This document shows, piece after piece, positions 3,942 to 4,368 of a DNA stretch of 12,273 nucleotides (the stretch's first letter is position 1; each line of letters starts with the position of its first letter). Source of the DNA: an uncultured Saprospiraceae bacterium (GTDB lineage: Bacteria > Bacteroidota > Bacteroidia > Chitinophagales > Saprospiraceae); assembly GCA_964509175.1 (NCBI GenBank), contig CAZDWO010000095.1, positions 1 to 12,273 of the forward strand. Reading direction: 5' to 3'. The notes below the pieces were generated by a model. It ran no database searches and was not told where the DNA came from. It saw only the letters and a program-made list of their open reading frames with translations. A program made the translations under genes and the position numbers.

Positions 3942-4087
3942 TACGGAAAGAGAGACTCGAACTCTACTTTTCTATAAAAGATGAATCCTAGCTGGAGGAC
4001 GGAGCATCCAGTTCCTTCACTTTACATGGTGCATTTAGCACCTTGTAATTCGCCAAGAGGCGAATCGCTCAGTCTTATCATTTCCGT
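3942..4087 (-). ncRNA. tRNA-like RNA with ~100-nt structured insertion (contains structured repeat copy 1) or disrupted tRNA pseudogene
   Basis: Minus strand. Perfect 7-bp acceptor ACGGAAA (4087-4081) / TTTCCGT (3948-3942). T-arm TAGAG-TTCGAGT-CTCTC preceded by the variable-arm-like hairpin CTTTT-ATAG-AAAAG. No canonical D-arm or anticodon arm. The interior is three hairpins. Confidence 0.3.
3985..4079 (-). repeat. ~95-nt structured repeat, copy 1 (three hairpins)
   Basis: Homologous to 4275-4368. Hairpins (minus sense): ATTCGCC-TCTT-GGCGAAT, GGTGC-TAAAT-GCACC, and CTGGA..TCCAG. The differences from copy 2 are compensatory (GGTGC/GCACC versus AGTGC/GCACT; the loop differs while the stem is kept). 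Confidence 0.45.
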
Positions 4088-4107
4088 ATTAATCTCTATT
4101 CGTTGTG

Positions 4108-4178
4108 TTGTCCAGATAGGGTTCGAACCTATACTATCAGAATCAAAACCTGATGTGCTGCCATTACACTACCGGACA
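4108..4178 (-). tRNA. tRNA-Gln(TTG)
   Basis: Minus strand: TGTCCGG TA GTG-T-AATGGCAG-CAC A TCAGG-TTTTGAT-TCTGA TAGT ATAGG-TTCGAAC-CCTAT CTGGACA A. U1-A72 as in many Gln tRNAs. Clean cloverleaf. No CCA encoded. Confidence 0.7.
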
Positions 4179-4189
4179 AGTTTTTAAAG

Positions 4190-4262
4190 TACTCCGTATG
4201 GGACTCGAACCCATTTTTCCTGATAGAAAGTCAGGTGTACTAGCCGCATATACGAACGGAGC
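4190..4262 (-). tRNA. tRNA-Glu(TTC), non-canonical U37
   Basis: Minus strand. Acceptor GCTCCGT/ACGGAGT (G1.U72). D GTAT-ATGCGGCTA-GTAC. Anticodon arm CCTGA-CTTTCTA-TCAGG (anticodon TTC, position 37 = U). T-arm ATGGG-TTCGAGT-CCCAT. Confidence 0.5.
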
Positions 4263-4274
4263 AAATAGTAAAAT

Positions 4275-4368
4275 ATCCTAGCTGGATGACGGAGCATCCA
4301 GTTCCTTCATTTTAGCAAGTGCATTTAGCACTTACTAATTCGCCTTTCGGCGAACCATTCAGTCATCC
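4275..4368 (-). repeat. ~95-nt structured repeat, copy 2
   Basis: Minus sense: TTCGCC-GAAA-GGCGAA (GNRA-type loop), AAGTGC-TAAAT-GCACTT, and CTGGATG-CTCCGT-CATCCAG (7 bp). It lies between tRNA-Asp and tRNA-Glu. Confidence 0.45.

Follow-up and report, generated by a model that had tools for sequence, protein, structure and literature searches.

Three-hairpin repeats of tRNA-gene origin in an RtcB RNA-repair operon of an uncultured Saprospiraceae bacterium

What are the structured repeats that lie among the tRNA genes of a bacterial RNA-repair operon, and where did they come from? The question is raised by a contig of an uncultured Saprospiraceae bacterium (GenBank assembly GCA_964509175.1, contig CAZDWO010000095.1, positions 1 to 12,273; the whole of this 12,273-nt stretch is called the window), in which a first-pass annotation made from the letters alone had pointed to two copies of a ~95-nt three-hairpin element in the spacers of a tRNA cluster. 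The two copies turn out to belong to a larger family, which shares the strand of the tRNAs and of the RNA ligase gene rtcB, has a covarying three-hairpin structure and can be traced to tRNA and tRNA-like genes. On the favoured reading, tRNA processing would free the repeats as tRNA-scaffolded small RNAs that resemble Y RNAs and serve the RtcB/Band-7 machinery. As a whole package, in which the function is read by analogy, this is given about even chances, and most of the uncertainty sits in the functional half, i.e., expression, processing, stability, binding partner and any role in repair.

A repeat search of the window recovered the pair (copies c1 and c2, Table 1) as a direct repeat with 82% identity, confirming that the two align over their whole length. 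The unit is 90 nt rather than 95 nt, because the similarity between c1 and c2 ends at 4074 and 4364, respectively. Read on the minus strand, both copies begin with a 5′ tail, GACUGA(R)(Y)G(R), followed by a first hairpin, H1 (UUCGCC/GGCGAA), with the loop UCUU in c1 and GAAA in c2. A single linker base separates H1 from H2, a 10-bp stem with the loop UAAAU, in which GGUGC/GCACC in one copy is replaced by AGUGC/GCACU in the other. An 11-nt linker, AAA(R)UGAAGGAA, leads to H3 (CUGGAUG-CUCCGU-C(A/C)UCCAG), which forms 7 bp in c2 and contains a U.C mismatch in c1, and the unit closes with the 3′ tail CUAGGAU. In c2, the 5′ end reads GACUGAAUGG, the H2–H3 linker AAAAUGAAGGAA and H3 CUGGAUG-CUCCGU-CAUCCAG. 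The features that the first-pass annotation had picked out by eye are thus all recovered, namely the covarying GGTGC/GCACC and AGTGC/GCACT (H2), the CGCC-loop-GGCG stem with differing loops (H1), the minus-strand GAAA loop of the second copy (H1 of c2) and the extension of its CTGGA/TCCAG stem to 7 bp (H3).

The count of two copies was correct for that pair and too low for the window. A covariance model (CM) built from c1 and c2 only, R1, was searched against the window, which holds at least four copies of this kind (type A; c1, c2, c4 and c5) and one divergent relative (type B; c3). Parts of c4 and c5 were also paired with each other by the repeat search, as family D2. All five lie on the minus strand and, in the search of the 12-kb window, within 2884–5320; four other contigs of this species carry them unchanged. 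The copy c4, situated between tRNA-Leu remnants and the open reading frame (ORF) for a TPR protein, upstream of the latter, forms H1 as UUUGUGAU-UUU-AUCACAAA, H2 as UUCUAUUGAC-UAAAU-GUCAAUGGAA and H3 as CCGAUAU-AUCA-AUAUCGG. The copy c5 overlaps the stop codon of rtcB, whose TAG (5299–5301) falls in the H1 loop GAUA, and continues with H2 (UUUGAUUGAC-UAAAU-GUCAAUCAAA) and H3 (CCGAAAC-AUCA-GUUUCGG). The type-B relative c3 reads GACUGAACGAU, followed by H1 (UACC-GCA-GGUA), H2 (GAAUGUCU-AGU-AGACAUUC), the linker AAGAGAAGGAAC and a small hairpin, CAC-GAA-GUG.

The structure of the repeat is maintained where its sequence changes. The 16 differences between c1 and c2 fall in the H1 loop (four), the 5′ tail (three), the linker (one), H2 (seven) and H3 (one), and the seven in H2 consist of three double compensatory changes (C-G/G-C, A-U/U.G and G-C/A-U) and one repaired mismatch; selection on RNA structure, as first proposed, can therefore draw on more compensatory changes than had been listed. 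Compared with shuffled sequences, the folds of the pair c1/c2 have z-scores of −4.2 and −6.3 and that of c4 a z-score of −5.0, and the fold energies of the ~90-nt copies range from −32 to −38 kcal/mol. In a CM-made alignment of the four type-A copies, pairing holds in 97.8% of pair cells, and both sides have changed in 15 of 23 pairs. With the orthologue of the sister species added, the proportion is 98.2% of 109 pair cells, with compensatory changes on both sides in 15 of 22 pairs, so that the stems are kept in the additional copies rather than broken by substitutions; the orthologue itself (L034/L038) keeps every stem via four further compensatory pairs. None of 500 shuffles reached any of five measures, a test that is only indicative with so few sequences, and slid controls were 24–42% paired. 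MAFFT alignments of the copies set H1 and H2 of c4 and c5, and all of c3 and its counterpart in L026, out of register, and CM-made alignments were used instead. The same three hairpins were obtained unaided by RNAalifold and by minimum free energy (MFE) folds of single sequences, including c4 and c5. Fold z-scores, CM matches and the alignment test together exclude a chance origin of the repeat structure.

Between the group of c1, c2 and the L034 orthologue and the pair c4/c5, overall identity is only 52–57%, and paired columns (42–55% identical) are less conserved than unpaired ones (58–64%). The conserved single-stranded motifs are the 5′ GAnUGAnnG, the loop UAAAU and the linker AAAnU...GAAC. 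This pattern, as read from the alignments, is what would be expected for an RNA selected for its structure and for a few single-stranded motifs. Two finer structural ideas were rejected: a pseudoknot between the linker and the H3 loop is inconsistent across copies, and the match between the sarcin-ricin loop and the purine-rich linker GAAGGAAC is too short.

The origin of the copies is indicated by comparison with related operons, which were collected via homologues of RtcB and the TPR protein and by one metagenome pattern scan (loci numbered with the prefix L). Their usual order is rtcB, small ORF, terminator, leader ORF, terminator, tRNA-Asp, X, tRNA-Glu, tRNA-Gln, tRNA-Leu(UAG), tRNA-Leu(UAA), TPR, tRNA-His, (tRNA-Arg(ACG)), (tRNA-Met), YrlA-like region and Band-7, where X denotes the slot between tRNA-Asp and tRNA-Glu. 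In L011, L020, L022 and L023, slot X is occupied by a conserved ~75-nt tRNA-like gene, which is also present in the RtcB or Band-7 loci L016 and L017 and on the short contigs L024 and L028. Its sequence is CUGRGAAG-AUAACGGUGGUUGUU-UA-CUCGC-CUUGGAC-GCGAG-AGG-UCGCAGGUUCGAAUCCUGC-UUCUCAG-AC; in L011 it scores 28.0 bits with the Rfam tRNA model, against a cut-off of 29, carries UGG in the anticodon loop and is missed by ARAGORN. In the window, positions 4365–4403, adjoining c2, are homologous to the 5′ part of this gene in L011, L020, L022, L023, L016, L024, L028 and L026. Within this remnant, UCUAG (4399–4403) can pair with CUAGG (4277–4281), giving a 5-bp closing stem that is present in the MFE fold.

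Two further states of the same slot connect the intact gene with c2. In L015 and L026, the slot-X gene carries an insert of ~60 nt (type B) directly after an intact anticodon arm, composed of GACUGA, an H1 with the loop GCA, an 8-bp H2 with the loop AGU, AAAGGAGAGAAC and a small GNRA hairpin. In the sister species (L034/L038), slot X reads UCUAGGGAGAUAAC and then immediately a type-A module (83.9 bits). The homology of 4365–4403 and these same-slot states show c2 to be a remodelled descendant of the conserved tRNA-Pro(UGG)-like gene, in which H3 takes the position of the T arm, the tail CUAGGAU is the old 3′ acceptor strand and the 5-bp closing stem derives from the acceptor stem. Stacked on that stem, the 7-bp H3 would make a total of 12 bp. 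The acceptor/T minihelix of a tRNA is likewise 12 bp long.

For c1 and c3, the surrounding tRNA genes are still recognisable. The scaffold around c1 keeps the acceptor stem of a tRNA-Leu(UAG), ACGGAAA (4081–4087) and UUUCCGU (3943–3949), together with the variable-arm hairpin CUUUU-AUAG-AAAAG and the T arm AGAG-UUCGAGU-CUCU, and c1 replaces the D and anticodon arms. In L006, L011, L026 and L034, the corresponding slot following tRNA-Gln holds an intact tRNA-Leu(UAG), and over the 3′ 25 nt the scaffold differs from the L034 gene only by a single base, where the T stem starts. In the scaffold around c3, a tRNA-Arg(ACG) has retained its acceptor stem (AGGAAUA/UAUUCCU), D arm (GUUC/GAAC) and T arm, and c3 is inserted so that the D arm lies on one side of it and a mutated anticodon arm on the other; an intact tRNA-Arg(ACG) stands between tRNA-His and tRNA-Met in L034, L037 and L038, and an alignment with it shows near identity over the 3′ 45 nt. 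Both chimeras have acceptor stems that are Watson–Crick paired throughout. The repeats had first been described as a unit in the spacers of the tRNA cluster, a description that does not hold: c1 lies inside a degenerate tRNA-Leu gene and c2 is the body of a degenerate tRNA-like gene, so that the 90 nt are not free-standing but most of a remodelled tRNA-like gene (c2), copied into tRNA-Leu(UAG) (c1). The identity of c1 to c2 (82%) exceeds that to the L034 orthologue (79%), which fits a duplication within the lineage of the window. The type-B copy c3 is 71% identical to the insert of the tRNA-Pro-like gene of L026 (7868–7919), with three compensatory H2 pairs.

Other tRNA-like genes of these operons are also modified. 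In the more distant RtcB/Band-7 operons of L017 (~3989, minus strand) and L028 (~1083, minus strand), another hairpin, CUCCCGA...UCGGGA, is inserted in the T loop of tRNA-like genes, so that hairpin insertion into the tRNA-like genes of these operons is recurrent. L026 has, at 8060–8180 between tRNA-Glu and tRNA-Gln, an aberrant tRNA-like gene with the acceptor stem ACUCUUG/CAAGAGU, a T arm and an unusual middle. In the window itself, two long minus-strand hairpins (2776–2838 and 3890–3925) share the palindromic tip CCCUUGGCCAAGGG (repeat family D6). The former has the closing stem UACCCAU/GUUGGGUA, similar to the acceptor stem that tRNA-Leu(UAA) has in the relatives, and it may be another tRNA gene with a replaced interior.

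The locus is a Bacteroidota RNA-repair operon, comprising a WYL regulator, RtcB, the tRNA cluster, a TPR protein, a YrlA-like RNA and a Band-7 protein. This RtcB/WYL/Band-7 context is the main clue to function and had no part in the first-pass annotation. The homologues of its RtcB, annotated as such, belong to Bacteroidota, e.g., Saprospiraceae and Balneolaceae; the WYL/WCX gene is paired with rtcB in all related loci, and the Band-7 gene is conserved in L006, L011, L020, L034 and L038. The JGI metagenome contig L002 is the reverse of the window.

Table 1. Repeat copies, their tRNA-derived scaffolds and the other features of the window (R1 and R2 are covariance models, R1 being built from c1 and c2)
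Feature	Position	Strand	Basis
c2, type A	4275–4364	−	repeat pair with c1; CM score 116 bits; orthologue at the same place in L034/L038
c1, type A	3985–4074	−	82% identical to c2; repeat search and CM
c4, type A	3799–3888	−	CM R1 36.1 bits, E ~1e-8; CM R2 83.4 bits
c5, type A	5233–5320	−	CM R1, filters off, 36.7 bits, E 5.5e-9; repeat family D2 partner of c4
c3, type-B relative	2884–2952	−	CM R1 19.7 bits, E 3e-4 in the window
5′ remnant of tRNA-Pro-like gene carrying c2, UCUAGGGAAAUAACGGUGGUUGUUUGCUCGCCUUCGGAU	4365–4403	−	homologous to intact tRNA-like gene
tRNA-Leu(UAG)-derived scaffold around c1	3942–4087	−	intact gene in the same slot in relatives
tRNA-Arg(ACG)-derived scaffold around c3	2839–2970	−	intact gene in the same slot in relatives
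rtcB, RNA 3′-phosphate/5′-OH ligase, first operon gene	5299–6672	−	Pfam RtcB 4.6e-34
WYL/WCX-domain regulator, divergent from rtcB	6724–7776	+	Pfam WYL and WCX
Band-7/SPFH protein, last operon gene	848–1954	−	Pfam Band_7 1e-32
TPR-like ORF	3072–3650	−	ORF analysis
tRNA-Met(CAU)	2701–2775	−	ARAGORN and Rfam
tRNA-His(GUG)	2982–3055	−	ARAGORN and Rfam
tRNA-Gln(UUG)	4107–4178	−	ARAGORN and Rfam
tRNA-Glu(UUC)	4189–4262	−	ARAGORN and Rfam
tRNA-Asp(GUC)	4431–4506	−	ARAGORN and Rfam

In keeping with the first impression that the element matches no recognisable family, Rfam 15 gave no match to it, whether at the gathering score or, for 1800–4800 and for the c2 unit alone, at E ≤ 10. Neither ARAGORN nor the Rfam tRNA family (RF00005) matched any copy of the module, even at E ≤ 10; tRNA features (acceptor stem and T arm) are kept only in the scaffolds surrounding c1 and c3, and descent from a tRNA or tRNA-like gene in the orthologous slot was found for the frames of c2, c1 and c3. 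Matches to self-cleaving ribozyme families were absent from Rfam searches at E ≤ 10, and a hammerhead-like core (CUGA...GGCGAA) was rejected, since an extra base is present in the 5′ CUGA(R)(Y)G(R), c2 has GG there and no free GAAA follows H1. The Pedo-repair RNA motif (RF01715), a repair-associated motif, was likewise rejected, being present in Rfam and giving no match at E ≤ 10.

The closest comparison is with the tRNA mimics of other RtcB operons. One of these, YrlA, has been proposed as a partner of RtcB together with Ro60, and as a tether or assistant of repair and decay proteins (Chen et al. 2014, PMC4201824; bioRxiv 10.1101/312249). Like YrlA, the element is non-coding, is encoded in an RtcB RNA-repair operon and joins parts of tRNA origin (an acceptor-like stem and a T arm) to a non-tRNA module that stands where a tRNA has its anticodon region. 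It differs in that no copy overlaps a match to the Rfam YrlA family (RF02553), whose sole match is the separate YrlA-like region at 2278–2376, below threshold (36.1 bits vs. a gathering score of 69); no TROVE/Ro60 (Rsr) domain was found among the ORFs of the window, and no Ro-binding helix is recognisable in the element. [quoted passage not shown] The setting is the same, i.e., RtcB beside a Band-7 protein and a tRNA-like non-coding RNA, and the tRNA-Pro-like ancestor of c2 is a candidate b7a-tRNA or a relative of it; the tRNA-like units at 2257–2395 may be another candidate. By the description available in that source, however, the b7a-tRNA strongly resembles an authentic tRNA, which the type-A module does not. 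Although tRNA mimics in RtcB operons are thus already known, neither the three-hairpin module nor the replacement of an anticodon domain by it appears in Rfam or in the literature searched.

More distant parallels exist. The tRNA cluster of phage T4 encodes species 1 and 2 (rnaC/rnaD), structured non-tRNA RNAs that are co-transcribed with the tRNAs, are released by tRNA processing enzymes and have no known function. They resemble the present element in being non-tRNA RNAs that lie between tRNA genes (the co-transcription and release of the element would be analogous), and differ from it in their host, a phage as against a bacterial RNA-repair operon; no sequence similarity was found, a search of the phage collection matching tRNA-Gln only. 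In the tRNA-like domain of tmRNA and in engineered tRNA scaffolds, the acceptor stem and T arm are kept while a foreign structured domain takes the place of the anticodon and D region, much as the c1 and c3 chimeras keep acceptor and T arms with the anticodon/D region replaced. In contrast to tmRNA, c1 and c3 have no tag reading frame, SmpB context or ARAGORN tmRNA call, and their sizes and sequences are unrelated.

On the favoured reading, i.e., that of tRNA-scaffolded small RNAs, the remodelling and its products could be pictured as follows. The ancestral copy would be c2, formed when a hairpin pair and a purine-rich linker were inserted beyond the anticodon arm, as in L026; the D and anticodon arms would then have decayed, and the T arm would have become H3. 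In the species of the window, the module would have been copied into tRNA-Leu(UAG) (c1), upstream of TPR (c4) and to the end of rtcB (c5), and a related module would have been inserted in the former tRNA-Arg(ACG) (c3). The copies c1–c4 would be transcribed with the operon tRNAs, and c5 with the rtcB mRNA. Because acceptor-type closing stems are kept and genuine tRNAs adjoin, c2, c1 and c3 are predicted to be excised by RNase P and 3′ tRNA processing; processing of the flanking Asp, Glu and Gln tRNAs (4107–4506) would free c2 and the c1 chimera. Once excised, the RNAs would accumulate as stable small RNAs of tRNA-like form, with the module standing in for the decoding half, and the module, with its conserved single-stranded motifs, would most plausibly be a putative protein-binding surface. 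By analogy with Y RNA/YrlA and the predicted b7a-tRNA, such RNAs could act as a cofactor, tether or decoy for the RtcB/Band-7 machinery. A bolder version, which we regard as rather doubtful, is that they are natural "tRNA-scaffold" RNAs, in which a portable module is swapped into the anticodon side of spare tRNA genes, matured and stabilised like a tRNA, and used to recruit or titrate an RtcB/Band-7 component or to decoy an RNA-targeting toxin, forming a new class of tRNA mimics, modular and associated with repair, distinct from YrlA and b7a-tRNA.

Several observations weigh against the favoured reading. No tRNA frame is recognisable around c4 and c5. Type-A copies were found only in the species of the window and in the sister species, which has one; a search with CM R2, filters off, found none in L006, L008, L011, L012, L020, L024, L026 and L028, and three of these (L006, L011 and L020) lack them even though their RtcB is 83–87% identical, so that any function must be dispensable or very young. 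The decoding ability of tRNA-Leu(UAG) and tRNA-Arg(ACG) was destroyed by the remodelling, and L034 contains debris, i.e., a partial H3 copy at 2988–3012, and has lost tRNA-Glu, while the first T-stem pair of the c1 scaffold is broken, all of which is what decay would look like. The pair counts, moreover, come from alignments fitted to the CM's own structure.

These observations also feed the strongest rival, a lineage-specific structured repeat without a function of its own, in which a hairpin-rich segment of a degenerating tRNA-like gene spread by local duplication or recombination among clustered spare tRNA genes under relaxed selection and made pseudogenes of some of them. Such an origin is possible, if somewhat unlikely. 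It would account for the narrow distribution, for the loss of decoding in two tRNA genes, for the presence of copies in five different contexts inside 2.5 kb, including the overlap with the rtcB stop codon, and for the partial copies, gene loss and tandem duplication seen in related loci (2988–3012 of L034; an extra tRNA-Asp in L031). Decay would, however, break stems, whereas compensatory change maintains all three of them across copies that are only 48–57% identical and across the orthologue, and conservation is higher in the unpaired linkers and in the UAAAU loop than in the stems. Every copy stands in the transcribed orientation, and the acceptor stems of the chimeras are intact. Signs of transposition of the MITE/REP kind were not found at c1, c2, c4 and c5, which show no terminal inverted words of ≥8 nt, no flanking direct repeats of >4 nt and no target-site duplications.

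Searches for the element elsewhere returned little. The phage collection gave the single tRNA-Gln match, and the plasmid collection tRNA-Glu/Gln similarity only; an exact 21-mer scan of viral contigs gave 0 matches. One 21-mer match in the genome collection lies inside a NifU/IscU-like coding region and was rejected as chance, as were two gapped-pattern matches in viral contigs, which fall in GC-rich phage coding DNA and are not recognised by CM R2. Weak CM matches in the rtcB/WYL promoter region of the window (6702–6792, plus strand), in L011 (1461–1544, within rtcB), in L026 (787–901) and in L037 (589–652, within the TPR ORF) were judged spurious. A phage origin of the locus, suggested by its AT-rich tRNA cluster, was rejected as well, since the Pfam domains and homologues are bacterial (Bacteroidota) and the phage collection contributed nothing further.

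A second rival would make the copies cis-acting punctuation of the transcript, whose hairpins would keep 3′ exonucleases off upstream RNA (rtcB mRNA and tRNA precursors) or guide its endonucleolytic processing, in the manner of REP/BIME elements. It is considered unlikely for the family, and fits best for c5 and c4, which stand immediately downstream of rtcB and ahead of the TPR ORF, respectively, where intercistronic stabilisers are typically placed. The very stable folds and the common orientation along the operon agree with it, and like REP/BIME the element comes in several structured intergenic copies in the transcribed orientation. A stabiliser needs stable hairpins alone, whereas here the linkers and one loop sequence are conserved too, and the tRNA frames of c1, c2 and c3, with their acceptor-type closing stems, suggest release as separate RNAs. 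No minus-strand U-tract follows the hairpins; the nearest intrinsic terminators on the transcribed strand, at 5034–5007 and 4576–4541, overlap no copy, and with them real terminators are already present downstream of rtcB. Unlike REP/BIME, the element is a 90-nt unit with three hairpins, conserved linkers and an origin in tRNA-like genes, is confined to one operon as far as visible and is accompanied by no RAYT-type transposase seen in the window. A role at the DNA level or on the plus strand, as a protein-binding site or as an antisense terminator made of the plus-strand H3 and a T-rich run, is highly improbable despite terminator-like consensus matches inside the copies (4280–4303 and 4028–4042), since two U.G pairs of the minus strand become A.C mismatches on the plus strand, no plus-strand gene there needs terminating, the homologous frames are minus-strand tRNA genes and another palindrome, TACGCA-N7-TGCGTA, is the candidate operator of the locus.

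That palindrome is perfect at 6712–6730, in the divergent region between rtcB and the WYL gene and ~40–50 nt upstream of rtcB, and occurs again at 2661–2679; many loci repeat it after the tRNA cluster, before the YrlA-like region and Band-7. It is also present in L004–L008, L011–L017, L020, L022, L026, L034, L037 and L038, which include distant operons, with zero matches expected by chance, and is a candidate operator of the WYL/WCX regulator. Directly upstream of Band-7, positions 2257–2520 (minus strand) form a composite of tRNA-like units (Rfam tRNA scores of 31.8, 26.1 and 16.7 bits; the weak tRNA matches fall in 2257–2502), with an exact 22-nt internal repeat (2298–2319 and 2369–2390). 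The region is conserved in L006 and L034 and may be the b7a-tRNA/YrlA-type RNA of the operon; the overlapping ORF at 2010–2357 is unlikely to be a real gene.

Ahead of the tRNA cluster, the minus strand of 4541–4800 has a −7 box (TACATTTG) near 4790, a small ORF (sORF; 4600–4728) of 42 codons that resembles a leader ORF (MKNNYTYVLPTFWGINQEQDHRIDRLQEPSYVDTQRSYIQIE), and the strong terminator hairpin 4576–4541, followed 35 nt on by tRNA-Asp. Equivalents of the leader sORF and hairpin are found in L006, L008, L011, L020, L026 and L034, and the two could form a translation-coupled attenuator that opens the tRNA cluster upon tRNA damage. A conserved small ORF of 37 aa (MKLSIHINLPKRSDRVSDFIEQLSDQGCYCHRCICSN; 5062–5175, minus strand) lies between rtcB/c5 and the terminator 5034–5007, with similar sORFs after rtcB in L006 and L034. 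In relatives, the tRNA set of the operon also includes Leu(UAG), Leu(UAA), Arg(ACG) and the Pro(UGG)-like gene. Many of these tRNA species are typical targets of anticodon nucleases, suggesting that the operon supplies spare or replacement tRNAs co-regulated with an RNA ligase. The cluster is structurally unstable, and several metagenome contigs break within it. A strain variant of the same species (L031, 2993–3220) has a tandem duplicate of tRNA-Asp, with its RtcB called 11 residues longer, and in L008 a DUF2828/DUF7788 protein (8402–9967) replaces the TPR/Band-7 part after the tRNAs.

The interest of the locus lies in the course that the remodelling appears to have taken, since intermediates are visible in relatives, from the intact tRNA-like gene through a gene with an insert to the fully remodelled gene, and genuine tRNA genes of an RtcB operon have had their anticodon domains exchanged for a covarying module with the acceptor and T-arm halves intact. 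The tRNA mimics YrlA and b7a-tRNA are known or predicted in RtcB operons. If the chimeras are expressed, they would offer a naturally occurring series with which to learn the half of a tRNA mimic that the repair machinery requires; if decay produced them, they would be a record of how fast spare tRNA genes erode through structured insertions. Either way, the operon offers a compact, well-defined system for tRNA-damage responses in Bacteroidota.

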